Translations under genes and position numbers: made by a program
NCBI GenBank assembly: GCA_951406725.2
Contig: OX597820.1
Location: 13,392,001-13,456,000 of the forward strand
DNA from: Octopus vulgaris
Taxonomy: Eukaryota
Direction: 5' to 3'
DNA length: 64,000 bases
Notes under the pieces: generated by a model
Databases searched by the model: none
The model's input: the letters and a program-made list of their open reading frames with translations, nothing else
What the model was told of the DNA's origin: nothing
Part shown: positions 3,937-63,995 of the stretch, piece by piece
Numbering within the stretch: the first letter of the stretch is position 1
How the letters are laid out: every line of letters starts with the position of its first letter

Positions 3937-4287
3937 TAAATACATGATGGAAATCATACTCCAGATCTCATCACAAATATCTGAGATTTCCTGTCATGTG
4001 ACTGATCTATAGGCATTCTTTTAGTCGGTTTGAAGTTCGTTAGTTTGTCAGGATAAACAAAGATAAACGAAAACGTCAGCCATTTTTTTTTCATATATGT
4101 TTTTCACGTTTGTTTAACCCACTTTTCCAGCCTAACCTCTCGGTGGCTGAAACAATCTCAGTTGACATATACGCTATTAACAAGAAACCTTATGTATTGA
4201 TAGTGACATTTTGACAGTAATTTACCTTATGAATATTTATTATTTACACCTGTCTATTGCTGGGTTCTATTTTCTCATTTTGTTGCC

Positions 4288-11120: not shown

Positions 11121-11875
11121 CGCGAGCTGGCAGAATCGTGACGCCGGCGAAATGCTTAGCGGTATTTCGTCAGCCGCTGCGTTGTGAGTTCAAATTCCGC
11201 CGAGGTTGACTTTGCCTTTCATCCTTTCGGGGTCGATTAAATAAGTATCAGTTACCCACTGGGGTCGATATAGTCGACTTATTCCGTTTGTCTGTCCTTG
11301 TCTGTCCTCTCTGTGTTTAGCCCCTTATGGGTAGTAAAGAAATAGGTATTTCGTCTGCCGCTACGTTCTGAGTTCAAATTCCGCAGAGGTCGAGTTTGCT
11401 TTCATCCTTTCGTGGTCGATAAATTAAGTACCAGTTACGCACTGGGGTTGATGTAATCGACTTAATCCGTCTGTCTGTCCTTCTTTGTATCCTCTGTGTT
11501 TAGCCCCTTGTGGGTAGTAAAGAAATAGGTATTTCGTCTGCCACTACGTTCTGAGTTCAAACTCCGCCGAGGTCAACCCTTGCCTTTCATCCTTTCGGGG
11601 TCAATAAATTAATTACCAGTTACGCACTGGGGTTGATGTAATCGACTTAATCCGTTTGTCTGTCCTTGTTTGTCCCCTCTGTGTTTAGCCGCTTGTGGGT
11701 AGTAAAGAAATAGGTATTTCGTCTGTCTTTACGTTCTGAGTTCAAATTCCGCCGAGGTCGAGTTTGCTTTCATCCTTTCGGGGTCGATAAATTAAGTACT
11801 AGTTGAGTACTGGGGTCAATCTAGTCGACTGACCCCCTCCCCAAAAACTTCGGGCCTTGTGCCTAGAGTAGAATT
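11121..11875 (+). mobile_element. SINE-B nested array: one head, three ~185-bp B2 units, then the remainder of a B1 element
   Basis: Units join as ...gtaaagaaata|ggtatttcgtctg. The final unit ends in the B1 tail ggccttgtgcctagagtagaa. Flanking direct repeat aatattagttta at 11099-11110 and 11877-11888. Confidence 0.85.
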
Positions 11876-11890
11876 GAATATTAGTTTATT

Positions 11891-26970: not shown

Positions 26971-27548
26971 AAAGGTCGACTTTGCCTTTCATCATTTCAG
27001 GGTTGATAAATTAAGTACCAGTTGTCTACTGCGGTCGATCTAATCGACTGGCCTCTCCCCAAAAATTTCGGGCCTTGTGCCTAGATTAGAACAGAATATC
27101 TAAAAGCGCCAGTGATAAATGCAGCAAGATTAACTGTAATGCATCATTGTTGTGAAGAAATACAAGATTATTTCAACGAGGATCCAGAAGTTCTATTAGT
27201 TAGGAAAGAAAAGTGGACAGAGTGTATTACGGCATAAGTCGTTGTTTAGCTCATAGTCAACTCTTTTTGCTGTTCAACCGTTGAAAACGGACGAATTATT
27301 TCCCGTCTTGCGAAGTTTCTGAATTCTTATGACGACAACAACGTTCATTTCTCGCTAGTAAGAACTAAGTTTCTAAAATAGATGGAGAAGTTAGGTGAAT
27401 TACTTTGGTCCAATGGTAGTTCATCTGTCATATTTATGGAAACTGTGGTGCGAATCCCACGATCAACCTTCGGGTTTTTTTACTTTTTCCTATCCAGAAG
27501 TGGGGTTTCTTAAAACAATAGTTACACGCTATTATTTATAGCTTTATA

Positions 27549-27930
27549 AGGCTGTGAGCTGGCAGAAACGGTAGCACGCCGGACGAAATGCTTAGCAGTA
27601 TTGCGCCTGCCGCTACGTTCTGAGTTCAAATTCCGCCGAGGTCGACTTTACCTTTCATCCTTTCGGGGTCGATAAATTAAGTACCAGTTACGCACTGGAG
27701 TCGATGTAATCGACTTAATCCCTTTGTCTGTCTTTGTTTGTCCCCTCTATGTTTAGCCTCTTGTGGGCAATAAAGAATGAAGTATTTCGTCTGTCTTTAC
27801 GTTCTGAGTTCAACTTCCGCCTTTCGTCCTTTCGGGGTCGATAAATTAAGTACCAGTTGCATATTGGGATCGATGTAATCGACTGGCCCCCTTCCCAAAC
27901 ATTTCGGCCCTTGTGCCTAGAGTAGAAAAG
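27549..27930 (+). mobile_element. SINE-B dimer (head, B2 unit, B1 remainder) with 14-bp TSD
   Basis: Junction taaagaatga|agtatttcgtctgtctttacg. Flanking direct repeat attatttatagctt at 27531-27544 and 27931-27944. Confidence 0.85.
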
Positions 27931-37775: not shown

Positions 37776-38694
37776 ATCCATTAGAGAAAAGCTTAATTAC
37801 TACAAATAAAGCCTGGTAAATATTTTGCTCAATTAATAACTAAAAGATGAATTGATCCAAATAATTTTCCTTCTATTTATATTTTCGTTTGTGATATTTG
37901 AGTGCTACATATACAGTATTTTATCTTTAAAGCCACTCTTTGCCAACTACTCTGTGGTACATTGGTTGTTTTTGTTTTTTTTTACTTTTTGATATATAGT
38001 GTGAAATCTTCTACCACCATTAATCTAATCTGTATGCATGATGTATAATCTGCTGCTTGACTCGACACACACAGGCTGGCAGTTTATGTGTTGCTGATTC
38101 TTATCTGTGAAATTTTAATAAAGAATTTGATCACGTTGTTTTAATAGTGATTAAGATAACAAGTTAGATTGCTTACGTATGTTAAGCGTTGATAGTTACA
38201 CAGATGTCTAGCTACATCTGCCGTTGGTAACGCGATGGACTTATGACATAACACTCAACACCCTGTCTGCATAACACCGCAAAATTAATCAATATGTCTG
38301 CAGTAGTGTGTTTCGTTTCTCTAGCAAAACGTTATCTGCGATTAACCAGCATCCTTTCTAGCTCTCATAATATTTAACACTCACGCTGTTTTGCATGGTT
38401 ACTCAATCCTCTGTTGGACTTGCCTTCGTGGACTTGCCTTCCTACCCGTCTTTTTTTTCTTCTTCCACAAGTTGTTCCTTTACGAATATTCCAGCCGAAC
38501 ATCAATCTCAGCAGTCTTAGAGGCCTGTTAATGTCTTGAGTGATTTCTCTCTCTCTGCTTTCTAATTAAATATTTAAAGGGGGGAAAAGATGGAGAAACT
38601 AAAGTAGGCATTGAACTCTGTTGATTCTTGGGATTCAAGAAACGATTAAGCTTTCTAAGGACCATTTTGGTAAACGGTATACTTGTAGGAGCAT

Positions 38695-38955
38695 AAGGCG
38701 GTAAGCTGGCAGAAACGTTAGCACGCCGGGCGAAATGCTTAGCAGTATTTCGTCTGCCGCTACGTCTGCCGCTACGTTGTGGTTAGTGAAGAAATAGGTA
38801 TTTCGTCTGCCGTTACGTTCTGAGCTCAAATCACGCCGAGGTCGACTTTGCATTTCATCCTTTCAGGGTCGATTAAATAAGTATTAGACTTAATCCGTTT
38901 GTCTGTCTTTGTTTGTCCTTTCTGTGTTTATTCCTTTGTGGGTAGTAAAGAGAAA
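38695..38955 (+). mobile_element. SINE-B2 with full head and 15-bp TSD
   Basis: TSD ggtatacttgtagga at 38676-38690 and 38956-38970. Contains a collapsed internal unit (...gtgaagaaata|ggtatttcg). Confidence 0.85.
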
Positions 38956-39113
38956 GGTATACTTGTAGGATCATGACTATCATTTAATATTAATGGTGTA
39001 GATGTGGCCTCTTCTGTTATTATGACATTACACGCATTAATATTCTATAGGAATATCAATAGATAGGCATATCTATCTATCTACCTACCTACTAATCTAT
39101 ATATTTATCTATG

Positions 39114-39965
39114 TTTCTTTATTACCCACAAGGGGCTAAACATAGAGGGGACAAACAGGGACAGACAAACGGATTAAGTCGATTACATCGACCCCAGTGC
39201 GTAACTGGTACTTAAGTTAACGACCCCGAAAGGATGAAAGGCAAAGTCGACCTCGGCGGAATTTGAACTCAGAACGTAACGTCAGACGAAATAACTAATC
39301 TATATTTTTATCTATTGATATATATGTATATATATATATATTTCTTTACTGCCCACAAGAGGCTAAACATAGAGGGGACAAACAAGGACAGACAAAGGGA
39401 TTAAGATGATTACATCGACTTCAGTGCGAAACTGGTACTTTATTTATCGACCCCGAAAGGATGAAAGGCAAAGTCGACCTCGGCGGAATTTGAACCCAGA
39501 ACGTAACGGCAGACGAAATAACTAATCTATATATTTATCTATTGATATATATGTATATATATATATATATTTCTTTACTGCCCACAAGAGGCTAAACATA
39601 GAGGGGACAAACAAGGACAGACAAAGGGAATAATCGATTACATCGACCCAGTACTTAACTGGTACTTAATTTATCGACCCCGAAAGGATGAAAGGCAAAG
39701 TCGACCTCGGCGGAATTTGAACTCAGAACGTAACGGCAGACGAAATAACTAATCTATATATTTATCTATTGATATATATATATTATTTATTTTTTACCCA
39801 CAAGAGGCTAAACATAGAGGGGACAAACAAGGACAGACAAAGGGATTAAGATGATTACATCGACTTCAGTGCGAAACTGGTACTTTATTTATCGACCCCG
39901 AAAGGATGAAAGACAAAGTCGACCTCGGTGGAATTTGAACTCAGAACGTAACGGCAGACGAAATA
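39114..39965 (-). mobile_element. Four head-less SINE-B2 units separated by copies of flanking genomic sequence
   Basis: Units at ~39114-39293, 39341-39520, 39570-39747 and 39790-39965, each followed on the plus strand by actaatctata. Confidence 0.9.
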
Positions 39966-39978
39966 ACTAATCTATATT

Positions 39979-40594
39979 ATTTCTTTATTACCCACTAGGG
40001 GCGACACAGAGGTGGACACCAAAAGACATGGGGACATAGAACATTTATAATTAAAATTTATGAAAAATGAATTGTTAAGTGAAAGAAAATGATATTATGA
40101 AAGCGATACCAACGGCCCCATACTCATCCATATTTTCCACGAATTCATCGCTCATTCTTATATCTTTCACCTCCCACTTCTCCCTTTCACACCTCACCAC
40201 AAACTCATCTATGTTCTTCTTTTCAATCACAGCATACCTAGTCTCACCAACTTCATACCTTGTTGGGGGGGGAGCGGGTGGGTTCAATGTCTGCATGGAT
40301 AGGGTGGGACTCAGAGGGTGTGGGTGGTTTTGGGGTAGATTGGTGTTCCATGTTATTTTCTTTTTTTTCTCGCATTCTTCTCTTCCTCTTATTTCCAACT
40401 TCCTTCCATTTCTGTGTATTCTCTTCCTCTTCTACTGTCTCCTTCTCCTCTGGTTTCTGCTTCTCTCTCTCTGGTTCGGAATCCATTTCTTTCCACAGCC
40501 GCCACAATCCACTCTGCCTCCACGTTTGGTGGCACTCCCTCCACCCTTATTCGTGTAATCCTTCTGTTTAAATACGTAGGTAACAGTGTTACAT
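39979..40594 (-). mobile_element. 5'-truncated 3' end of a retroelement with the shared Tx1-type tail, probably ORF1-only class
   Basis: Lys/Glu-rich ORF remnant (40075-40507), short UTR, tail gtccacctctgtgtcgcccctagtgggtaataaagaa. No ORF2 motifs. Confidence 0.65.
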
Positions 40595-40669
40595 AATAAC
40601 TGATCTATATATTTATCTATTGATATATATATGTATATATATACAGGCATAAATACAGAAACTTCGTGT

Positions 40670-40737
40670 GCAGCAGCAGCAGTAGTAGTAGTAGCAGCAG
40701 CAGCAGCAGCAGCAGTAGCAGCAGTAGTAGTAGTAGT

Positions 40738-40769
<32 letters not shown>

Positions 40770-40850
40770 CAGCAGCAGCAGCATTGGTTGTAGTAGTAGC
40801 AGCATTGGTAGTAGTAGTAATAGTAATAGTAGTAGTAGCAGCAGCAGTAG
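40670..40850. repeat. (CAG)n/(TAG)n compound microsatellite
   Basis: Direct inspection. Confidence 0.95.
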
Positions 40851-42579
40851 GAAGAGGACGACGACGACAACGAGGAGGACAAGGATGAGGGGAAGTAAAG
40901 CAAACTATTTCCCAGAATACAGAAACAAAATTAATTCAATGAGTAGAACCCGTGTACCGTGAGAGGATCACAAAAACCAAATATAACAATGCAGTAACCG
41001 TCTGTTTGCTGTCACTATAGAATGGGCAAACCTCACGTCCCACATACACATAAAAACTCTACTCATTATGCATTTCTCCTTACCAGAAAACTGTACCACT
41101 TTGCATTATTATTTATCATAAAGCAACCCTTAATAACTTACTGCAAGAAAAAGGAAGCAAATATCTTCTTATCGACAACAAACCACAATTGTGTAAGACG
41201 TGGAAAAAATTTACAAATGCGCAGTTGTCAACTTCATGAGACGAATACACGCATAGGGTACACAAGCTAACACACAACCTCACAGGTTTATCATGCACTT
41301 ACAATAAGAAGCATGAAAGAATACGGTGTTATCGCTTTATTCCCTCCTCTCTTCTCATTTAATACACCCATGAAAACAGAGTAACTGTTATGATATCAAT
41401 TGAAATAGCCAAACATAATCCTAAACATAAAATACAACAGAATATGATAACAAGCTAATGCCTGACTTCAATAGTCGAAAATTTTAATATCCGGTATCAA
41501 TGAAAATCAAGAGAGCCAACACAACAATTCTGCGCTTCTGTTGCTTTTGAAGAAAAAAATAATCAATGCTAATCTGGCTTTCTAGCAAGCTTCATCCATA
41601 TGATATTGCTGACTCTCAAAAGTTATTAGGAACCTTATGAAATAAATATGCCAAGTAATAGAAGCTCATTAAAAAGAAAAAGTAACCAATATGGGAAAGG
41701 TATGCAAAAAACGTTTATTACAATCACATCAGTTGTCTTTAACATATATAATATATATATACAGTCACACATATGTATTTATGTATGTATGTATTGTTAG
41801 GAACTTAAAAACGATAAAAACTTTTTATCGGATAATGTTAAGTTAAACATTTAAACGGACAGTTTTTGGTGCTTCACTGTAAGGTCAGCATATGAATTCC
41901 ATTGACAAAATGGGGGAAGCTAGGTGTTATTAACAAAAACTGTGAAACTATAAAAAATTGGCGAGACCTTGGCAAACCTTGATAAGCAGAGATAATTGTA
42001 CCCACCACCACCACCACCACCAGTTTTTGGTGACAGTTTTTTTTTCTTTCTGTGAAACAAAGTTGTTCAATTGGATTCTGGAAGTTATGGTTGCCTGTTC
42101 GTTTTATGCCCTTTGTGTTAGGCATTTATGGATTTATTTTATGCTCCAGGAATTCGCCAGAACTTTTGCCGGATTTAAAATAATTTGTGTGTCACATCTG
42201 GGTGAGTACAAAAATTTATTGAGTTATGTTGTTATAATATTTATGTGAATTTGTAACCCTGCATTTTGTGACAGGTTGAGTAGTAATTTTGCTAGCTATT
42301 TTCTGTTAGGATAAATGTTAAAATTTGTATGAATAGCTAAAGGGTGTATGAATTTAATTTTTTTATGCAGCCAAATTTTTATATTCGACAGCTGTAAATT
42401 TTGTCTAATTGTTACTCAGCAGGCTTGTATGAAGCAGTTTTGTGTGAATTTAAAGAAAACGAGTTTTTTTTTATTTAATTTTTTTTTATTATGATTATTG
42501 ATGTAGTCTGGCAGCCGTTTTGTGTCATGAACTTTTACTTTAAATGGTTGCTTTGACATTAGATTTATTTATGTTTAGG

Positions 42580-43724: not shown

Positions 43725-43893
43725 TATTTCTTTACTACTCACAAGGGGCTAAACACAGAAAGGACAGACGGATTAAGTAGATTATATCGACTCCATTGCG
43801 TAACTGGTACTTATTTAATCGACCCCGAAAGGATGAAAGGCAAAGTCGACCTCGGCGGAATTGGTACTCAGAACGTAACGGCAGACGAAATAC
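43725..43893 (-). mobile_element. Head-less SINE-B2 unit fused directly behind a LINE 3' end
   Basis: Minus strand reads LINE ...gggcaataaagaaattc|gtatttcgtctgccgttacg...gtagtaaagaaata. Confidence 0.85.
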
Positions 43894-46425
43894 GAATTTC
43901 TTTATTGCCCACCGAGGGCCAAACATAGAAATGGACAGAATAACTGACGGGATCAGTGAAGCGATATGATTTTACATATAATGTGACTTCAAAAGTTTAG
44001 ATACAATATATAAAAATCGAATGGAATTAACAATACAAAAACAATACAAATGAAGCGATGATCAGGCCATGCTCCGACCCCACAAGCCCTGATCTACCGC
44101 TGGTACCTTTTTTTTTTTTTTTTTTTTCATCTGTTCACACGGTTCCTTGCACGCACAACACTCGTTCAACATGCTTCCATCACATTTGGAACGTACACTC
44201 CGACAGACACCTCTTCTCCAGCCACAGCTTCCTTTTCAATTGAAAGGAAAAAAATGATCGTAAGCTGTGACCAGAGATAAAGTTGCCTGTCTTAATTCCT
44301 TTTATCCTAGTCTTCCAATACAGCCTCTTTTGCTATTGCTACAACCGTGAGAAAACAATTCTTACCTTCGTTCGTTAAAACACCCGATGGGTCAATTTTT
44401 ATAATTGACTCAGTCGAGAGCTGTACTCTTCCTTCGCCGGACAACAGGTGTTCAGCATAAGCCCACATTTCAGTTATCTCCGGACACTGAACAATAGCGT
44501 GAGGGACGGTTTCCCTGTCCCCCACACCCCGCATCTTGGACAGGTCGGAGACTGACGTTTACCATGTCTTGCGAGCTTATCTCAAACGGGCAAGGCACCT
44601 CTGTAGCATTGCCAGGTTAAGCACTTTTGGAAGTTGTCCAACGTTCTCAACCCGAATGTACGGTGAAACAGGCTGTCCAGTTGAATAAATGAGACCTAGA
44701 GTCGACCCCAGGCCATCGTTGCATTCAGACTCTACCAATCCACTATATAAAATCTGTGTAGCACCCCCACCGCTGGCGTTGCCCAAGCGCCGGAATAGCA
44801 AGAGGGCCCTACGGCACTTTTTATGCCATTCACTCGACCTCGGTCTACGAGAACACCAAGCTTCCTGTTCGCAAAAACTCTTGAACTCAGGGAACATTTG
44901 TCTGGCCAGCGGAGACCACACCCGTTCACTATCCAGGAGAATCCAGAGGTGCCTCAACGTCAACGCATGTCTGCGCATCATTAACCAAGGCATCCCTAAA
45001 CCTTCAAGGCTTTTGACAGCAGACCGAGCGTTTCACAAGTGGCGACCTGCCCTTCCACAAAACGCGAAAGTGCTGTCTCTCCAACCTGATCATCCGCGTA
45101 AGCCGTAACAAACTCCTGTAGACCTGGTTCTCTCGGGATGCCACTCAACCTTCGCTGTAAAGGCTCGAGAGCCATAATGTACAAAAGTGGTGAGAGCGGA
45201 CATCCTTGACGAACCGAGCATCTGATGCAGAATGGCTTCGAAAGCAAACCGTTCACCCGAACTATCGAGTCAATGTTGTGGTACAAAGCGATAAACACCT
45301 GAGGAAGCCAAGGCCCAGGCCAAACCGCGCAAGCACAGTCGTCAGGTATCGATGGTCAATCCTATCAAAGGCTTCAGACTGTTCCAAATGTACCAATGCC
45401 CCACTTTTGCCAGATTTATTACCAACCCTCTCTATGGTATAGTGAATAAGATGGAGGGTATCTTGAATGGTTCTGCCTGGGCTGGCACATGTCTGTGCCT
45501 CCCTGACTATACTATTCGCGACACGCCCCAACCTTTTTGCTAAGACCTTGGCCAAAATCTTCACTTCTGCGTGATGGGCCTGAAATTCTCTATAACGTCC
45601 CCCTTGTCCGGGTCCTTTCTGACCAACGTCACTACTCCCCGGCGCACAGATATGGGGATAAACCCATTCTGTTGCCAGTTCGCGTACACGTCAGCCAGTA
45701 GTTGTCCGAACAAATCTGGCATTTATTTATTCAGCTCGTACGGAAGACCATCAAGTCCCGGCGACTTACCCACTTTACAGTCGGCCAAAGCCTCCATCAC
45801 TTCCCCAGGCGTGATTGGATCTTCGCAAGACTCCGCATTCGACCCCGAGAGGCACGGCAGCCCGGCAAGAAAGTCTTCGAGGGCTCTCCCACCAACAGGA
45901 CAGCCGTCACCCCCGAACAGCTGGGCGAAGTACTCTCGAAAGGCCTCACATATTTTCTAGGGTTCGTTTACCAAGACACCATTTTGATTCGTCAAAGACC
46001 GAATAGAGGAACTATTTCCTTGCCGAGCTTCCACCACTCGGGCCCATCCAGCGGCCTTGATTCCTTCACTTCCCATTGCACGTAACTTAGCTCTGGCAAT
46101 ACTCCCCATGTATTGGGCTTCGAGATGCTGGTTTAACTCCAGTCCTTTCACCCTCGCTTGGTCCGTATTACCAGTCCTCCAGGCTTCTTCTAGTTCCCTA
46201 ACTAGACCATCTCATATTCTACGTCCCGTCTTAGCTAAACTTATGCTAAACCTAATAGGCTCATATTTGATGGCTCTTTTTAGGGCGTACCACCATTTGT
46301 TATTAATGATGGTACCTGTTAATGCCCGCTGTATTAACATCTTGATCTGCTTTCAGTACTCCTCAATCGCCAAAAGGGACGTGTTGTTTCCAGTAGCCAG
46401 ATCCCTGACTATGCAACTTATCTAC
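43894..46425 (-). mobile_element. 5'-truncated L1/Tx1-clade LINE, degenerate ORF2 (post-endonuclease region, RT, zinc finger)
   Basis: GYWK(x)NTSLL-like motif near 46390, KILAKVLAKRL, EAFDRIDH, RQGCPLSPLLY, YADD, ETVPHAIVQC. Many frameshifts and a deletion after YADD. Confidence 0.9.
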
Positions 46426-46502: not shown

Positions 46503-47981
46503 AATTCTTTATTATCCATTAAGGACTATACATAGATGGGGACGGTACAATCAGGGAACATAAAATAACAAAAGAGGATGAATAAAGACGAAGAAATTAA
46601 AAAAAGAATGAATTATAAGATATTAAAATGAGTCGCAATGCCCACTCGATCCCCGAAATGGAGTGGTTACATTTTGTCAGTTTTTCCCTTAATTGATTTT
46701 ATCAAAGATTATCAATTTCACAATTACAACTGAAGTTCGCAAAAATTACAAAAAAATAAATTTCACAAACATAGTTTTTCGGTACTTTTTCATAAATTTC
46801 GTAGATAGTCTATTTTTCTTTTCAACTCCTCGTCCATTACGAGATGTGGGTGATCCATCAACCGACACCTCTTGTCTTCTATTATATTCTTTTTGGCGAC
46901 CTCGATGAAATTGGCGTAACTGTCCTCGTGGACTAAAGCACCAATATCATCTTCGTCATACTTGGTTCCCAACCTAATCCATGTTACTCCCTTCATTCTC
47001 CATACTTTTATCTTTATTTCATAGGAGCTCCTGAAAATTACAAATGCTCCATAAAATTTAAACATAAAATTTGAACCTGTGTTTTCCACTGAGTGTTCCC
47101 TTTTCTTCGATGTTTTCCTACTTTTGGGACTAGTTGCTCCTTTATTTTCCTCTTTTGGCTTTTCCCTTTCTTTGTTTTCTTTTTCTTTCAGTGTACTGCT
47201 TTTTCCTAACTTTTTTCCTTCTTTCTCTTGTCTCTGTTCTTTCTTTTGCTCTTTTTCTGTTTCTTTGCTTTGTGTAAATTCATATAATGGACACTCCCTC
47301 CTTATATGTCCTCTTGTTCCACACAGGTAACAATTGGGTCTCATTTCTTCAATGTTTATTGTCGGTTCGTTTTCCACTTCAATCTGGTAGGGGATTCTCT
47401 CTATGCCTTCTGTTGTGGCCATAAGCCACATCTCGACACCGAATCCCCTCCAGTTCACTGTATTAGTTTCGGTAACTGAACCCAGTTCGGATTCGTCTTT
47501 TGTAGACCCTAGAATCGCTGTCACCAGCCATTCTGTTTTTATTTCCGGCGGTATGCTCGGAATCTTAATCTTTATACCTCTTCTTCCCTTATAAGCGGGT
47601 AACATTGTAAACCTTTCTGTTCTTAAGATAGCGGTGGATAGCGAGGCCGCCTCTTCACTTGTGGCAAACCTCACCTCCACCATACCGAACTTTTCCCTCT
47701 GCTGACGTATTTTGCTCTTTCCATTACGTCTCGGAGACACTTTTCTATTTCTTCTCCTGGTATCCATACTATTTTCTTTGAGTTCATATCTTGTCTTGTA
47801 TACAATTGTTTTACTGCACTTCTCTTCTGTTGTTTCTGCTGGAGGGATCAGCTTGATGCTTTCACCCTCCCTTTTTACATACTGTTCACATCTCTGTATT
47901 TCATCTATCTCAATTGTTACATTTCTTTTTACTAGTGGCGCGCCACTTTTTGCGGCAACCCTCGCATAGGGCTCCATGCAG
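46503..47981 (-). mobile_element. ORF1-only retroelement with the shared Tx1-type tail
   Basis: ORF1 stop at 46790, ~290-bp UTR, then tail gtccccatctatgtatagtccttaatggataataaagaa. No ORF2 between the stop and the tail. Confidence 0.8.
46790..47977 (-). CDS. Tx1-type ORF1 protein (~395 aa; RRM-like region, CCHC zinc knuckle, Lys/Glu-rich region)
   Basis: Open frame starting MEPYARVAA, with VEVRFATSEEA, IPPEIKTEWL, NWRGFG and RPNCYLCGTRGHIRREC. Confidence 0.7.
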   Translation of the reverse strand: MEPYARVAAKSGAPLVKRNVTIEIDEIQRCEQYVKREGESIKLIPPAETTEEKCSKTIVYKTRYELKENSMDTRRRNRKVSPRRNGKSKIRQQREKFGMVEVRFATSEEAASLSTAILRTERFTMLPAYKGRRGIKIKIPSIPPEIKTEWLVTAILGSTKDESELGSVTETNTVNWRGFGVEMWLMATTEGIERIPYQIEVENEPTINIEEMRPNCYLCGTRGHIRRECPLYEFTQSKETEKEQKKEQRQEKEGKKLGKSSTLKEKENKEREKPKEENKGATSPKSRKTSKKREHSVENTGSNFMFKFYGAFVIFRSSYEIKIKVWRMKGVTWIRLGTKYDEDDIGALVHEDSYANFIEVAKKNIIEDKRCRLMDHPHLVMDEELKRKIDYLRNL

Positions 47982-50144
47982 TATTTCTTTATTGCCCACA
48001 AGGGGCCAACATAGAGGGGGACAGCACAACATGATTTGGGGTCATTTTAAAAACAATGATGAACAACATTAAAATGCTAATGAAAATACGATAAAAATTT
48101 ACAAAAAATCGAATGTTACACTTTTTACACAACAAACACCAAAAGAGACATGAAGTGGGGGAAAAAACAGGATTGCCGACCCCGCGAGCCCTGTTTTTCC
48201 CACTGAAACTTGGCAGCTGACTTACGGCGTGTTCATGTAGTAACTTTCACCCTCAGCAATCGTGCGACACGCTTCCATCTTTTTTGGAACTAGCATACTG
48301 ACAGACACCTTTTCTCTAGCTCCGCCTTTCTTTTTAGGTGGAACCTAAAAAAGTTCACCAAGGCGGGGCCAGAGATCATGATGTCTGTCTTTATACCTTT
48401 CGTTCTGGTTTTCCATATACTCTCTTTCGCTACTGCCACTATGATGAGAAAGCAATGCTTACCTTCGTTTGTCAAAAAACTAGGCGAGTCAATTTTTAGA
48501 ATTGTCTCAGCCGATAGCTGTACTCTTCTTCCGTCTGACAGCAGGTGTTCTGCATAAACCCACACGTCTGAAATTTCCGGACACTGAACAATAGCGTGCA
48601 GGACTGTTTCCACATCCTGCCCGCATCTTGGACAGTCCGATGGTCCAACGTGACCATGTCTTGTAAGCTTATCCCGAACGGGTAAGGCTCCTCTGTAACA
48701 TTGCCAGGCCAAAGACTTCTGAAAGTTATCCAGCGTCCTCGGCCCGAATGTCCTTTGGAACAGGCTGTCTAACTGATTATTGTCGAGACCCAAGGTCCTT
48801 CCTAGGGCATCGTCATTTCCGGCCTCTACCAACCTACTATAAAAAGCTGCAGTGGTACCAAAGCCGCTAAAAACACATTGGCCACCTCCGCCCTCTCTTT
48901 CAAGGATAGCCACCGCCAAGACCAAGTCCTGACCGCGTGAGCCACCTTGCTCGTCACCTCAGACCAGTTCTTTTCTATCTGGAGATCTGGACCAAACCAG
49001 ATCCCTAGTAGTTTAACCGGGCCCTCCGTCCAGCATCCCACGATGCTATTCGAAGGCATCGACTTGCCCCTCCAGGCGCCGAGTTGCAAGCCGACTGACT
49101 TTTCCCGATTAATCTTTGCTCCTGTCCCCGTCTCGTAAGCCTTGATGGTATCTCCCACATTCTGTAGGAGTTCCACCTTGGTCACGATGATGATGTCGTC
49201 CGCATACGATGTCACAGATCCTCCACCTCCTGGATTCGTCGGGATGGCGCTCAGCTTTCGCAGTAATGGCTCGAGAGCCATCACATATAAAAGCGGGGAG
49301 AGCGGACACCCTTGACGAACCGACCGTTTGATGCGGAACTGCTTCGAGAGGAAGCCATTCACTCGAATGATCGAGTCGATGTTGTCGTACAACTGTATGA
49401 TCCACCTGAGAAAACCAATGCCCAGACCGAACTGTGCCAGCACAGAAACCAGGTACCGATGGTTCACCCTATCGAAAGCTTTACTCTGGTATAAATGGAC
49501 CAGTGCCCCACCTTTGCCAGAGTTATTCCCGCACCCTTCTACGGTGTAACATATAAGGTGAAGATTATCCTGAATAGTTCTTCCGGGGACTGCGCAAGTT
49601 TGTGCCTCCCCGATCAGACTATCTGCAACACGCGTCAACCTTTTCGCTAACACCTTGGCCAAAATCTTCACCTCTGCGTTCAGTAGGGTGATGGGCCTAA
49701 AGTTATCTATTCTGTCCCCCTTGTCCGGGTCCTTCCTGATCAGCGTCACCACTCCCCGGCGTACAGATCTTGATTCCAGTTCGCGAATACGCTGGCCAGT
49801 ACAGGCCCGAACAAGTCTGGCATACTTTTATATAGTTCGTAGGGTAAACCATCAATTCCCGGAGCCTTACCTCTGCCACAGTCGGTTATGGCGTCAGGTG
49901 TGATTGACCCTCCACAGCTCTCCGCATCCTGTCCCGAGAGGCGCGGCAGCCCGGCAAGGAGGTCCGTAAGGTCCACCCTCTCCTCCGGTCCACCATCAAC
50001 CCCGAAAAGCTGGGCGAAGTGCTCCTGAAAAGTCCAACACATCTCCTCGGGTTCGTTTACCAAATCGCCCTTTTCGTTCGTCACAGACTTAATTGTGGAA
50101 TCGTTTCCACGTTGAGCTTCTACAACTCGTGCCCATCCGGCAGT
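47982..50144 (-). mobile_element. 5'-truncated L1/Tx1-clade LINE, ORF2 RT plus zinc finger (related to but distinct from 43894-46425)
   Basis: KAPGIDGLPYELY, NFRPITLLNAEVKILAK, KAFDRVNH, RQGCPLSPLLY, YADD, KLLGIW, CPRCGQDVETVLHAIVQC. Tail gtccccctctatgttggccccttgtgggcaataaagaaata. Confidence 0.92.
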
Positions 50145-51444: not shown

Positions 51445-54095
51445 CCATTCTGTTGGGGGGGATAAATGTCGAGCTTTTGAAGTAGTTCAGGGCAAGACTT
51501 CCGCCCGTCCCCCAGCCCCATAAAAGAATCCCACCCATTTTAAAAACTTTTTTTCGACACAATCCTCCCCCCCCCTTTTCGGCTACGGAGAATACGAATC
51601 TGCAAAAAAATTGGCAAAAATCGACATTTCAAAATAACTACCCCCAACCCCATTTCCTTCATTTTAAACTTTTATCAGAATTTCGTTTTCTCAAAATATG
51701 CGGAAAAATACGGAGATTATGATTCTGAAAAATTTTCCAAAAATCTTGGTTCAACCGTCGGGTTATTTTTTGGATTGACCCAAGCTGCGCGATGTCATTG
51801 GGATTTACTTTTTTCATATCGTTGAAAAGAGTTCTGGTTATTTTCCTATAAGTTATTACTCCTCCTTTATCACCATCGCCTTGGAAAATCCTTGATTGGT
51901 GGCTGGGCATAATCACCCCCACCAAATATTTATTAGTGTTTTTGAACACCAGTGTCGCCTTTCTGGCCACCCTTGCGGTTCTCTTTTCCCTTTTTTGAGG
52001 TTTTTTTTCAGGGGTTACAGCTTTAGGTCTTTTCCTAGAGACCATCTGGAATTCTTTCTCTTGGGCCACCGCTCCTTTAATGCTGGTGGTAGCCATCTGG
52101 GTAATGGCCTCCTTGGCCGGGGCTACCACCTTCTCACTGCTTATTTCTTCCTTACTGGTGGTAGCCTTCTGTGTAAGGGCCTCTTTGGCCGAAGCTACCA
52201 CCTTCTCATTTTTATTCTCTGTGGTCTTTCTGGCCACCTTTACAGTTTTTCTTTCCCTTTTTGGGAGGGGTTTATTTTTTTCCGGTGTTGTGATTTTTGG
52301 TCTTTTCCTTGAAACCAACTTAGTTTGCATCTTCCTTGCTGGTGGCAGCCCTCTGGTTAATGGCCTCCATGGCTGGAGCTACCACCACACTGGTTTCTTT
52401 TCCACTGGTGGTAGCCCTCTGGGTAATGGCCTCCATGGCCGGAGCTACCACCTCACTATTTTCTTTTTCATTGGTGGTAGCCCTCTGGGTAATGGCCTCC
52501 ATGGCCGGAGCTACCACCTCACTAGTTTCTTTTTCGCTAGTGGCAGCCCCTTGGCCGGGGTTACCACCTTCTTGTTCTTGTTGTTCATGCCGGTGGTAGC
52601 CTTGTGGGAACTGGCCTCCTTGGCCGAGGCTACCGCCTTCTCTTTTCCGTTTTCAGTGTTGGTGGTAGCCCCCTGGGTACTGGCCTCCTCGGCCGAGGCT
52701 ACCACTTCCTCATTGGTTTTCGTCTTATTTCCGCATTCTAACCTCTGGTGCCCCTTCCTTCCGCACCGGTAGCACCGAGGTCGTCTTCCTTCAACCTGGA
52801 TGATTAAGGCTGCGTCCTCTGCTACCTGCAACCTATCGGGCAGTTCCTCTAAATCTGTAGGGGAACCTTGAGCTAGGACCTCTAGCGATTGTCCCCTCCA
52901 ATTCTGAGAGGGCTGTCTTTTTACTTGTATCCCCTCCAGCTTGTCCTCTCTATTGAAGAGGAGCATGGTAATAACCCATGCTATCTCAACATCAGGAGGA
53001 ACGTTTGCAATATTTATTCGGGACGTTCTACGTCCCGAATATAATGGCAACAATGCCATTTTCTCATTCTGCAAGGTTTGAGCCGAATATTCTTTTGCCT
53101 TTTCAGCCGACTCAAACCTTCCTTCCACCGTTGCATATCCCTTTCCTCGGGTCAGGAAGGCAATATCCTTCATTACTGACCCGAGGCTCTCCTCTATATC
53201 TTTCTCCTCGAATCTTGCAATTTTTTTTTTATCTTTTAGGCAAAAAGTTTTGTATATTAGCGATTTTTCCTTCTTGTTAGTTATAATCTCAAGCGGAGGG
53301 GAAAATTTACTTTCCCCATTTTCTTCTGTAATTTTGTGTTTTTTCCTTTTTTTCCCATTATCTCTTTTTCTTCCAAAAATACTTTTTCCTTTCTCTTTTT
53401 TTATTTTTTTTCCCTTTTTTTTAACGCTTCATATACTGCTCAAGTTCTATCAGATCAATTACAGGTGGCAGTTCATTGAACTCCACTATCGTTCCGCCCG
53501 CATCAATTCTATCCCCGTACTTGTCTTTAAGTTTTTCGTAGGCTACCTTATCTGCCACCAAGCCCTTCACTCTCTCAGAGTACGTGTCTCTGGGCATTTT
53601 TATCCTTATGATGTTTTTTGCATAAGTAAAAGAATTCCACTGTTTCTTCCCGCCTCTAGGCTTTCTCCTTTCTTCCTTTCCCAATATAGGTTCCTCTATA
53701 CTCTTCTCTGAGGCTGGAACTTTCTTCTTCTTCATCTCACCCTCTTGTAGCTGAGTTCCTGAAACTTCTGCCAAATCACATGTCGTCCTCATCCTTGCCT
53801 CCTCCTTCTCTGGCTCATTGTCACACACCTTAATTATTTTTTTACTTCCCTTCTCCGCCTTAGTTTTGTCATCTTTCTTTCTCGTTACATCTTCCCTTTC
53901 CACCTCTTCTTTTTCTGGTTATTCGGTGGCGGGCTTACCCTACCGCTCTTCCTCCTTTTTCTTTCCACTCTCGTGAAACCGTCTTCCGCTGTTTTTTCGC
54001 TACTCTCGACCAGCACTGCCTGTTCGACATTTTCTTGAATTTCTCTGTTGATTGTAACAACGGTGAAAAGAATCTCAATGTTAATTTATTGATGC
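51445..54095 (-). mobile_element. Long ORF1-type element (frameshifted) with internal coding tandem repeats and no ORF2 downstream
   Basis: Starts MSNRQCWSRV near 54029. Contains KGYATVEGRFESAEKA, VPPDVEIAW, NWRGQ, VEGRRPRCYRCGRKGHQRLEC, then repeats of (E)KVVA(S/P)A(K/M)EAITQ(R/K)ATT. Confidence 0.8.
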
Positions 54096-58569: not shown

Positions 58570-59195
58570 TTTCTACTCTAGGAACAAGGCCCAAAATTTT
58601 TTTGGGGGGGGGGAGTCGATTAGATCGACCCCAGTACGTAACTGGTGCTTATTTAATCGACTCCGAAAGGATGAAAAGCAAAGTCGACCTCGGAGGAATT
58701 TGAACTCAGAACGTAAAGACAAACGAATAACGCTAAGCATTACGCCCGGCGTGCTAACGTTTCTGCCGGCTCGCCGCCTTTCAAATATTCTTTTTCTACT
58801 CTAGGCACAAGGCCCGAATTTTTTTTTGGCTGGGGGCAGTCCATTAAATCGACCCCAGTACGTAACTGGTGCTTATTTAATCGACTCCGAAAGGATGAAA
58901 AGCAAAGTTGACCTCGGAGGAATTTGAACTCAGAACGTAAAGACAAACGAATAACGCTAAGCATTACGCCCGGCGTGCTAACGTTTCTGCCGGCTCGCCG
59001 CCTTTCAAATATTCTTTTTCTACTCTAGGCACAAGGCCCGAATTTTTTTTTGGCTGGGGGCAGTCCATTAAATCGATCCCAGTGGGCAACTGGTACTTAA
59101 TTTATCGACCCCGAAAGGATGAAAAGCAAAGTCGACCTCGGAGGAATTTGAACTCAGAACGTAACGGCAGACGAAATACCGCTAAGCATTTCGCA
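58570..59195 (-). mobile_element. Three tandem SINE-B1 copies; the rightmost head is interrupted by a retroelement 3' end
   Basis: Near-identical duplicated unit of about 225 bp. Minus-strand junction ...gtgggaaataaaaaattt|gcgaaatgcttagcggtatttcg. Confidence 0.85.
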
Positions 59196-60097: not shown

Positions 60098-61915
60098 TTA
60101 TTTATTCTATTCATATTAGTAGGGCTTAGAATAGCCATAATACGTTTATTTCTGGCAGGATCTCCAATAACATATGATAAACATTAAATTTTATACATTA
60201 TAACACTGAGGATTTTCAACCTCTTGTCACTATTCCTCAACATTGCTTGTGCCCGTATACTCGGCCATCACCCACGCCTCATTCAAGACCAAGACGGCCA
60301 CAAGCAATATTCCTCATTGAGTCCCTGCAGCCTGTGCATCACGGGCGGCGTTATGACCTCCACAGCTATCTGTGGAGCCCATTCGGGTTCCCGTCTGAAG
60401 GTTAAAAGTACTCCCTTGTGGTACTTTTCCACCACCTTTTCTACTTCTCCAACTCTGTAGAAGGCCAATAATTCGTCTTCCTCCGGGGTCGAGGTAGTCA
60501 ATTCTACCATTGGCGGCACAATTCTTTCCAACGGTGTCTCTTCCCCTGCCGGTGGCACAACCCCTACAGGCGAGGTTCCGGGAAACTCCGGTGCTCTATC
60601 AGCGACTGCCGACAATGTCCCGTTTCTCTTCCTCTTTTTCTTAACTGAGGGAAGGTGCGTCTCCTCCATGACCGGGAGATTCGCCTCCCCTCCCTCATTC
60701 CTAGGATCCTTCGGTGGGCACCCATTGTTACTCACCTTCTTCCTCTTACTTCTTTGAGGAGTCCTCCGTCTCCTCAGCTCCAGGACTTTGCTTTGTTCCT
60801 GAGAACAGTTTTTTTTATGGCCAGGCTCCAATGACACCTGGAGGAGGGGCGACCCTCAAGAATCACCGGGTATCTGCACCTGATCATTTTCAAAAAACCT
60901 GGCATAACCAAATTCATGGCTGATTGTTTCCATAGGGTCAAAACAGCTTTTGACCCAGCCCAATTAGCCACAGGAAATATCTTCACATTGAGGAGCCTGG
61001 CTCCGCTTCCACTCAGACCCCGACGGATAGTATCCCCTATCCACTCAGGTTCAATTCCGGGTGGCAAACCACAGACCCAAGCCCTCGTCAACTTTTCCCA
61101 CCGTAAGTGGGAAGAAACAAAATTTCTCTACCCTCAAAGGGCTGGCTGGCAAAAGTGCGAGCCTCCTCTGGGGTGTCAAATAGCAACCACACGGTTGCAT
61201 ATTTGACACCCCTAGAGAAATACTTAATGGTTGGCAGATGTTCCGTCAACTCCTGCTCAATCAGCTGACTGGAGAAGCCGGCAATGGAGTCGAGAACCTT
61301 CGAATACGTTCTCAACACCACCGTCCTCTCCTCTTGCTGTCTGAGCCACTCCGTAGGTGGGACAATCTCCCACTCTACAATCTTATCCGTATTGTTTGCC
61401 ATGTTTTAAATTAAAAAGTAAAAAAGCCCGAAACAATAGTTCACAAATTTCAAAAAGAAAAGAGAAATCAAACGGAAACAAAAGGGAAGAAGAGAAAAGC
61501 AAACAGTTCAATAAAAAAAGTGACAAAAGAAGTAAACAACAGTTCAACAAAACACAGCAAAAAAATCTTCTGGGCATTCGGGTACTCCAAGCCGTGTGGT
61601 ACTCCGATTAGAACTTGGACTGCTCCACTTGAAATGCAGCTTTCCAATTATTGGTAAACGTTGTTGTAAAAACACTATTCACAAAAAGTGAACAACTTTT
61701 GGGGGCAGGATATGCCTCCTAACTATACATCTCACAGTGAGAAAAAAATTGTTACTTAATGTGAACAATATTGCTGAACTGCAAGCAGACTAATGTCCTG
61801 AATCCAGAGAGGACTCCTGGTTTGTAAAAAAATATTACCACAGACACAACCCCCACTGGACCCAAGAAACAAAGGCCTTACCTTGCAGCAGCTACATTTT
61901 CGCCGGCTAAACACC
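60098..61915 (-). mobile_element. Apparently complete ORF1-only element, homologue of 31666-33766
   Basis: ORF from 61402 reads MANNTDKIVEWEIVPPTEWLRQQEERTVVLRTYSKVL versus MAIKNGATALEWEIVPPNQWLKDMEERTVVVRTYSKVL. Shared KRKKVSNNGCPPKDP. AATAAA at 60101-60106 on the minus strand. Confidence 0.8.
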
Positions 61916-62450
61916 ACCGGCCACATTTAAAACAACGTGGTACTCTGCCCTCTACCCACACCCTCAGCAATATTTCCCCCAACGTCACAGTCTCAGCCAA
62001 GTTCTCGAGTTGACCCTCCTCCGTCTGAATAATTAAATCAAGCGTCCTTCCTTTGCACCCTCCTTCTGCTTCTGTGGCATCTTCTCCTCGCTTCCAACAA
62101 GGATAGCTGCCGCTACCCAAGCTACTTCTATATCCGATGGAATTGCTTCTACCCTCACCTTGGAAGTTTTTCTTGTTTTCACCGCCACATTCGCCAGCCT
62201 CATCGCCTCCTCTACTGTCCTAAATTGGGCGACCATTGTCCCATATCTTTTTCCTTTGGTGATATATATTATATCTTTTGACTTCTCTCTTACCGCCTTT
62301 TCTGTTTCCGCTTCCAACTGCTCAGCCTTTTTTTCCTTTTAAAGAGAACACCTTATAGGTGATCGTTTTCCTTTCCATCTTACATTTCGTTGGAGAGGTT
62401 GAGGCCGACCTCACCACACACTTGTGGGCTCCCTCTTTCTCCTCCCTCCT
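61916..62450 (-). pseudogene. Internal fragment of another Tx1-type ORF1
   Basis: ERKTITYKV, KGKRYGTMVAQFRTVEEA, IPSDIEVAW, VEGRVPRCFKCGR (cut inside the knuckle). Upstream boundary approximate. Confidence 0.7.
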
Positions 62451-63995
62451 CAGGTAGCCCGGCAAGGTCGCGATACGCCGGATGGCCTTTGGGTGTCTCT
62501 TTTATTTGTCTGTACACTTTTTCCGCAATCCACGCACATCTTTCGTCTAGATCTTTGTTTTTGTCGTACAATCTTGCTGTGTGGTGCGGGACGACAATAT
62601 CATCTGTATATTTGTCTCGAGTATCATACTCAATTAACACAAGTTCATCTCTTTCGTCTTTTTTTTTCTGGGCCAGTTAAGCGGGATTTTTTTTTTGGTG
62701 GGGGTATCTGTGATGCGTCATCATTTTTATTTTTTGTAGGGGATGTGGACAGGGATGATGCATGAGTTATTTTACGAACAATCGTAAATTCCCTCTCTGA
62801 TACCTCCATGGTATCGTCTGGGGTAGTTATATTTTGTTCAGTAGGCACTGCAATTTTTAAGGGGGTGGGAGGTTTTAATAATGTAGGGGCTTGTGTGTGC
62901 AAGGGCTGGGTTTTTTGTCAGTTTGTTTTGAGGTTGGCACCGTAACAGCAGGAGTGGGACATTTTGTTTTTGTACGGGTAGGTGAGTTTGCAAGGGTAGG
63001 GATTTTTTTTATCTGAGGGGCCTGTTGTCTGCGGTTTCTTTTGATTGCCAGGACAGTCCACACGAATGTGGCCCTTTTTGCCGCAGGCGTAGCAGGTGGG
63101 TTTTCGGCCCTCGACCTGTACCTCGAGGGCCACATTCTCGCCCACGAGTACCCTCTCAGGAAGGACCTGCAGGTCCTCCTGTGTCCCTTGGATTATTACA
63201 TTAATGCTCCGCCCAAGCCAACTTTGAGGAGCATAGCATATTACCTGCAATATTTTGTACGCCCTCTTATATAACAGGGCGGCCACCACCTCTACTTCTG
63301 GCGGCACTTCTGTAATCTTGACCCAGGACGTCCTACGCCCCATATGTCGGCAGAAGTACTACCTCCTTAGTGTTTAGGGGACTCACGGAATGCCCGCGGG
63401 CCACCTCTTCCCCCGAGAAGCGGACCTCCACAGTGCCGTGTGCCCGTCCCCGGCGACGTACACTATGTCCCTCCAAATCGGCGACAGGCATTTTTGATAA
63501 TATTCTTTTCAAAGTGTTTGAACATTCTGCTTTGTGGGCAGAAGGTTTTAAACACTACGGTCCGCTTCTCTGTCTCCACGATACTAGAGGATGGTGATAT
63601 TTTAACATCACCACCCTCTTCTTTCATTCTTTTAAATAGCTAGACGAGCTGATCAACATTAATGTCAATGTTCTCGGTTGCCACTGCGGCAACCGCCGAA
63701 AATTTTTTATGTGTTGGCACATCTATCAACGTTGCTCTCAAGAGCACATTTTTCATGAATAATCTCTGTTGAACTTAATTATACACAACACAAAAATTAC
63801 AAATACAAATATTGGTTTCCCACAAAACTGGGAACCCTATAAAAAGTATTCCTCCCAAAGCAGTTCAAAAAGTAGTTCAAAAGCAGTTCAAAAATTAAGT
63901 CCAATTCCCACCCCCATTCGGGGGAGGGGCATAAAAATAGTCTAGCAAGACTATATACAGTCACGAAGATGTTATAAATTAAAAAAGGCCACAAT
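62451..63995 (-). mobile_element. Further Tx1-type ORF1 element (frameshifted) with T-rich 5' UTR running to the window edge
   Basis: ETEKRTVVFKT, VPPEVE, QSWLG, VEGRKPTCYACGKKGHIRVDC. Confidence 0.75.

Follow-up and report, generated by a model that had tools for sequence, protein, structure and literature searches.

A 64,000-nucleotide stretch of Octopus vulgaris DNA (contig OX597820.1, positions 13,392,001 to 13,456,000; hereafter the window) carries on its minus strand an array of five units, namely four head-less SINE bodies and a fragment of an ORF1-only retroelement, spaced by copies of one flank. The array was probably built by repeated LINE-driven insertion at the 5′ junction of the previous copy, with homologous pairing between the cDNA and the start of the resident element, combined with local copying of DNA.

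Structure of the Array

The minus-strand order is S6, the ORF piece (615 bp with its tail), S5, unit 4, S4, unit 3, S3, unit 2, S2, unit 1, S1 and the downstream flank (Table 1). The units stand head to tail on the same strand with target copies between them, and two extra bases (40593-40594) lie between the ORF piece and S6. A motif scan of the window for ACT[AG]ATCTATA returned the six starts listed in the initial annotation (39091, 39294, 39521, 39748, 39966 and 40599) and a single additional, unrelated match at 4001. The site is unique, TA-rich DNA. Each spacer begins exactly at an element tail, and the place at which the spacers start varies. Allowing no more than two mismatches, the ungapped match to the upstream flank S6 was 22 bp for S1, 32 bp for S2, 34 bp for S3, 36 bp for S4 and 12 bp for S5, with 2 substitutions in total among the 24-nt spacer cores. 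The duplicated segment had been put at about 12 to 50 bp; the ungapped lengths are 12-36 bp, and the value of about 50 bp holds only with length changes in the (TA)n run.

All four SINE bodies have the identical start base after GATTAGT (minus strand 39293, 39520, 39747 and 39965), in line with the common start already reported for them. Equally, the last duplication does contain four nucleotides (TATT) of unit 4, as had been claimed.

When public contigs from four runs were compared with the array, family copies dominated the matches. At the 5′ junction of the ORF piece, compared with the repeat part skipped, none of the contigs listed spanned the junctions in any run, including the one with the best coverage. 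A mixed GCA/GTA trinucleotide tract lies just upstream of the array, at 40670-40860. The array locus gave no sign of any host function.

Table 1. Positions of array components and related LINE copies in the window.
Feature	Position	Strand	Evidence
S1, 3′ copy of the unit 1 target-site duplication (22 bp)	39091..39113	-	flank match
Unit 1, head-less SINE body, tail GTGGGTAATAAAGAA; 3′-most, presumably the first insertion	39114..39293	-	separated from units 2-4 by 11-16 substitutions
S2, flank copy, 32 bp ungapped + (TA)n	39294..39340	-	flank match
Unit 2, middle as in unit 4, tail and spacer type as in unit 3; probable product of local copying	39341..39520	-	
S3, flank copy, 34 bp ungapped + (TA)n	39521..39569	-	flank match
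Unit 3, head-less SINE body, GGGCAGTAAAGAA tail	39570..39747	-	
S4, flank copy, up to 36 bp	39748..39785	-	flank match
Unit 4, head-less SINE body, tail different and decayed; first 4 bases within the ORF-piece duplication	39786..39965	-	
ORF1-only piece, 3′ copy of its 16-bp target-site duplication (S5 + TATT)	39962..39977	-	
ORF1-only piece, 5′-truncated copy of a ~1.7-kb element, shared tail, deletions near 40494, 40259 and 40120	39978..40592	-	
S6, (TA)-rich upstream flank from which all spacers derive; includes the 5′ copy of the duplication, 40595-40610	40595..40645	-	
Decayed L1/Tx1-type LINE 3′ part, same tail, then directly a head-less SINE	43897..46300	-	
L1/Tx1-type LINE 3′ part (RT, zf-RVT), same tail, then an ORF1-type fragment; likely partner machinery	47985..50100	-	

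Relationships among the SINE Units

Distances between units were compared with a background of 172 sampled full-body copies. Between 10% and 46% of random copy pairs are as close as unit 1 is to units 2-4. Pairs 1-2, 1-4 and 3-4 stand at background distance, pairs 1-3 and 2-3 are closer, at distances reached by 10% and 6% of random pairs, and pair 2-4 is closer than 99% of them. Units 1 and 3 have their nearest sampled copies outside the array. The one further exact match for unit 3, at locus L074, differs by 8 substitutions and is no clear source for it.

The variants that the initial annotation had seen in both unit 2 and unit 4 are private to them: across the whole assembly, a 28-mer and a 22-mer each match these two units alone (2/2). 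They indicate local copying and agree with the suggestion that some DNA-level duplication contributed. Units 2 and 3 have tail and spacer type in common, and the tail of unit 4 differs. One letter carried by units 2-4 is present in 2% of the 172 sampled copies, and these three units may all descend from one insertion. Five independent insertions are not supported; given this letter and the private variants of units 2 and 4, a better fit is three to four RNA events together with one to two episodes of local copying.

Different templates gave rise to unit 1, to the group of units 2-4 and to the ORF piece. In the simplest history that we infer, unit 1 came first; another SINE then landed on its 5′ side, and a duplication turned it into units 2 and 3. 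Unit 4 followed and swapped its middle with unit 2, and the ORF piece arrived last.

The ORF1-Only Piece

ORF1-only (HAL1-like) elements carry a single ORF homologous to the ORF1 of a partner and no RT, and have a tail and a target duplication. What had been described as a tail-bearing ORF fragment does bear a tail, and can now be described more exactly as the 3′ part of a ~1.7-kb element of this kind with three internal deletions of 232, 115 and 93 bp. The ~1.7-kb element has one 370-aa gag-like ORF without RT, a tail and a target duplication. Its ORF had no Pfam match, and a PDB search returned only weak zinc-knuckle matches. The deletions have 1-2 nt of microhomology at their edges; splicing was rejected as their cause, with GT-AG borders in 0 of 3.

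The piece is flanked by a 16-bp target-site duplication, ATATAGAT(T/C)AGTTATT, that reaches 4 bases into unit 4. Across 33 traceable events of the family, some of them internal to arrays, duplications measured 13-27 bp with a median of 17 (tracing used a 13-bp seed and an upper limit of 30). The duplication of the ORF piece fits this range, and S2-S4 are longer. Judged against the family median, the piece is thus an ordinary insertion, 12 bp before the previous junction.

At a distance of 0.8% from its nearest relative, the ORF piece looks younger than the SINE units, which hold more rare variants. Rare letters numbered 29/720 in the SINE units against 5/617 differences in the ORF piece (p = 0.0002, or p = 0.048 with only units 1 and 3 counted), a rough comparison of hand-tallied counts and differing measures in which units 2 and 4 are non-independent.

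The LINE Partner

The SINE, the ORF1-only element and RT-bearing LINE copies in the window all end in the same 3′ tail. As a rule, a tail common to a LINE and a SINE names the mobilising machinery, which makes this LINE the likely one here. The window copies match PF00078, PF13966 and PF00098, and a related full-length LINE at locus L077 encodes an APE endonuclease (PF03372) and an RT (PF00078). Its ORF1 is 35% identical to the 370-aa passenger ORF (E = 2e-48). The features of the L1/Tx1 clade were found, namely an ORF2 with APE endonuclease, RT and C-terminal zinc motif and an ORF1 with a CCHC knuckle. The partner may be a Tx1 element; in the Atlas its RT matches carried generic names only.

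ORF1-only arrays also lie directly 5′ of a LINE at L077 (C15:0.81 Mb), C6:102.89, C9:25.52, C11:57.09 and C1:142.94 Mb; the L077 LINE is full-length, with ORF1 and ORF2 open as far as fetched. Further decayed ORF1-type and LINE fragments occur in the window at 46793-48046, 51659-53918 and 60283-63358, forming a dense cluster of this group.

SINE Stacks and Non-Canonical Arrays Elsewhere in the Genome

Arrays whose spacers copy their own flank, for which the initial annotation had suggested a genome search, were found both as head-less SINE stacks and as ORF1-only arrays. SINE dimers with the order tail, spacer, head numbered 434, against about 35 expected under uniform placement, so chance does not explain them. 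Re-targeting by SINEs is nevertheless modest, at 1% of exact heads, 12-fold above a uniform model that ignores clustering. Among 30 junctions examined, 12 were unique-flank duplications, 8 canonical self-targets and 10 unclear. The 12 unique-site dimers comprised four less than 5% apart, one at 6%, six at 7-14% and one unmeasurable, with a background median of 9.7%. Of nine loci chosen for non-head spacers, five were truncated units parted by their own flank. Exact look-alikes are rare, since the pattern of A/T-only junctions leading straight into the body matched two loci.

The true counterparts of the window array stand at non-canonical sites. At C14:47.60 Mb, four full units of two subfamilies have one fixed junction, and their flank copies measure about 34, 48 and 62 bp. 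Locus L173 holds two SINEs 10.1% apart with a common truncation point and a triple duplication. At C9:113.33 Mb, two units that differ by 5% have the same internal start base. Of about 60 informative sites, the upstream unit carries resident-type letters at four, among them the first two. Resident-type starting letters were seen in only 6 of 21 testable adjacent pairs; given this count and a recombinant family, the C9 tract is one suggestive case.

The start base of the array units coincides with the genome-wide self-insertion boundary of the SINE; homology to a resident is therefore not the sole route to it. Arrays with one head and several bodies (tail, GG, body) are present in the window at 11125-11880, 27546-27900, 38700-38960 and 43725-43930. 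Their tail-GG-body join is the canonical self-insertion site, and at 43897 the tail upstream is that of a LINE. A second fixed point lies in the SINE head, before AGAAACG; it holds most of the tail-to-body junctions among the 100 listed of 600, and the tail there is mostly the GGGCAATAAAG variant. A tandem duplication with a period of 224, involving the other SINE tail type and its flank, occupies 58570-59194 of the window.

ORF1-Only Arrays across the Genome

Full-length 5′ ends of the ORF1-only element had a same-strand neighbour within 16 kb in 80 of 100 cases among the matches listed (of 130), and an opposite-strand neighbour in 0 of 100. We mapped 49 regions (716 kb), 28 from best matches and 21 from the 5′-end list, mostly chosen as clusters. 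For 127 units of multi-unit arrays, the nearest relative lay at another locus in 85 cases and in the same array in 41, with one tie. The order of subfamilies, which are our own clusters, was polar (13:1, 9:0, 9:0, 5:0 and 5:0), with weaker pairs at 5:2, 4:1, 3:1, 3:2 and 2:1. The original idea is partly supported, in its repeated RNA-templated insertion at one site and its polar order. Private-mutation load showed no age gradient along the ORF1-only arrays (13 arrays against 14, with 6 ties; rho = −0.03), and the polar order could reflect roles within one event instead of time.

In 31 of the 49 regions, the arrays sit in a ~1.1-kb repeat labelled Helitron-like from its ends, for which 352 exact empty sites were found. 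At seven of these loci, divergence is 0-1.2% among the 3′ units against 2-10.5% in the host flanks (a misaligned row, L133, was left out), which indicates that the arrays were filled locally. Hitch-hiking of arrays inside the Helitron-like host is ruled out at these seven loci by the same flank divergence.

The ~1.1-kb Helitron-like repeat, seen at L132-L137 and in the 31 regions, bears a decayed piece of ORF1. About 8-11 bp of the empty site are missing from filled copies at an invariant 5′ junction, which resembles the precise deletion seen with melanogaster-type R1. Three further ORF1-only loci (L027, L028 and L031) have another common repeated target, with a downstream flank that begins CCAAAT.TGAA. 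Inside arrays, ORF1-only copies with 5′ inversions resembling twin priming occur at L004 and L084 (C1:74.68 Mb) and L036 (C26:13.93 Mb). Homogeneous arrays with repeated spacers, possibly early satellites, were noted at L174 (C3:162.82 Mb), C4:45.68 Mb (units 0.1% apart) and C2:138.77-138.80 Mb (14 units).

Proposed Mechanism and Alternative Explanations

In the serial model that we favour, a truncated SINE, recognisable in unit 1 by its tail and 22-bp target-site duplication, would have inserted first. Later SINE RNAs would have been primed at new nicks about 25-45 bp upstream in the TA-rich flank, and their cDNA would have paired with the first bases of the resident and been copied back to the nick. 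Pairing of this kind would fix the 5′ junction and leave the spacer length to be set by the nick alone. One duplication and/or conversion would link units 2, 3 and 4, among which the private variants are found. Probably as the final step, an ORF1-only RNA would have inserted 12 bp upstream of unit 4 and left the 16-bp duplication; cDNA lacking homology to the SINE start would be expected to give a normal duplication of about 17 bp. The earlier proposal that each insertion regenerates its own target is only half upheld, in that the 5′ junction is the fixed part and the nick position varies. The family has a weak TAT preference (22, 23 and 19 of 33 events at three positions), which provides several nick sites in the TA-rich flank and cannot alone explain the repeated return to one spot. 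A TATA box 20-40 bp upstream of the nick was present in 2 of 33 events, with no excess over neighbouring bins. Our guess is that the machinery returns to an occupied junction by tethering to, or pairing with, the resident copy.

In the main rival model, the array might instead have arisen in one concerted event, in which the RT, after the first cDNA, copies flank DNA, jumps to the next RNA tail and repeats this from the same open top-strand end. The fixed junction, the variable spacers and the re-use of a unique site would all follow without targeting, and both the three internal skips of the ORF piece, with their microhomology, and the lack of an age gradient in ORF1-only arrays are compatible with it. 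L1 chimeras, reportedly described by Gilbert in 2005, offer a parallel. Passages of a study in cultured cells report two-template L1 insertions and locally templated DNA (PMC11702581), which also speaks for such an event. We nevertheless regard it as unlikely: an ordinary 16-bp duplication is the kind given by a fresh nick pair, the ORF piece has the younger appearance, and the variants of units 2 and 4 have no source copy in the assembly, suggesting time in place. The strongly non-random subfamily order across independently filled loci also counts against it.

Serial insertion could also have drawn its start base from the RNA, through transcripts that lack the head or a hot spot of truncation at the self-insertion boundary, without pairing to the resident. 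Among sampled head-less, tail-bearing copies, 14 of 20 do start at position 56-57 (7/12 in the regions; 8/8 in the window, including the four units), one of the position 56-57 copies stands at a unique site without an upstream tail, and the boundary falls at the loop of a predicted hairpin. The hairpin, however, folds no better than shuffled sequences (z = −0.01), and no ribozyme family was matched: the one result of an Rfam scan of 38600-40700, which looked for a self-cleaving ribozyme where the units begin, was a sub-threshold miRNA match on (TA)n. Same-start pairs exist at other positions too (C9:113.33 Mb and L173), and spacers longer than normal duplications are left unexplained. We consider an RNA-set start improbable. 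Least credible is that one insertion was multiplied purely by tandem duplication of DNA, by way of its duplications and the (TA)n run; we assign this a very small probability. It would suit the closeness and private variants of units 2 and 4, the near-identical S2 and S3, the four of 12 unique-site dimers below 5% divergence and the three units of a C4 array that differ by 0.1%. It offers no way to make an ORF1-only piece with its own duplication, the letters at subfamily-type positions and the type of tail distinguish unit 1 from unit 3, and every spacer starts precisely at a tail. The units are also not all one another's closest relatives, and comparable arrays occur elsewhere, the two points on which the initial annotation had staked its proposal. 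Tandem duplication is refuted for the whole array and survives only for units 2-4.

Comparison with Known Systems

HAL1 and HeT-A type elements have a single gag-like ORF, no RT and borrowed machinery, and HeT-A also forms polar head-to-tail arrays. Unlike these, the octopus ORF1-only arrays are interstitial and have target duplications.

The closest known system is Drosophila R1, for which the relevant passages describe head-to-tail non-LTR copies with target duplications between them, insertion into the 5′ duplication of the resident, and cDNA annealing to upstream sequence that yields precise 5′ junctions (Stage and Eickbush 2009, PMC2718515). The octopus array likewise has head-to-tail copies spaced by target duplications. 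As described in those passages, R1 nicks 28S rDNA at one fixed position and leaves a constant 14-bp spacer (PMC2718515), whereas the octopus array lies in unique DNA, with a moving nick, spacers from 12 to more than 30 bp and two passenger types mixed. Separate RNA templates, a test taken from R1, are evident between unit 1, the group of units 2-4 and the ORF piece, and not between units 2 and 4. With no fixed nick in a conserved multicopy target and no constant spacer, the array is not filed as R1-type.

For SINEU-3 with Tx1-Mar in crocodilians and Tx1L in Tx1D, the sections consulted describe tandem copies that sandwich a duplication and read them as sequential insertion (Kojima 2015, PMC4494074). 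That system resembles ours in its Tx1-type LINE with passengers, its site preference within another transposon and its tandem copies. As presented there, SINEU-3/Tx1L stacking follows a repeated target; the octopus array is outside canonical targets and has one truncation point. In the parts of McGurk and Barbash (2018, PMC5932611) that concern TE dimers, a double insertion leaves a target copy in the junction and unequal exchange expands the dimer. A target copy is left between stacked copies here as well; Jockey dimers in that account often have distinct 5′ truncations (6/10), while the octopus array has one truncation across different templates.

No description of such arrays in octopus was found in the open-access main texts searched, and none was seen in the main-text passages of PMC13282606. 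The new feature at this locus is that copies stack at unique DNA, where the nick moves and different templates have one truncation point in common.

Significance

Stacking into a duplicated target by sequence-specific elements was already known; the octopus case extends to unique sites, with a moving nick and a fixed 5′ junction. A broader reading, on which the LINE machinery would be drawn to the 5′ junction of every earlier insertion of the family, regardless of the surrounding sequence and also where the resident has lost its promoter, is rather unlikely. If it were true, insertions would seed their own landing sites, arrays would be a time-ordered record of active passengers, and target choice would have a route independent of the sequence specificity of the endonuclease. 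The system would offer a testable model for the completion of 5′ junctions and the seeding of satellites by retroelements.
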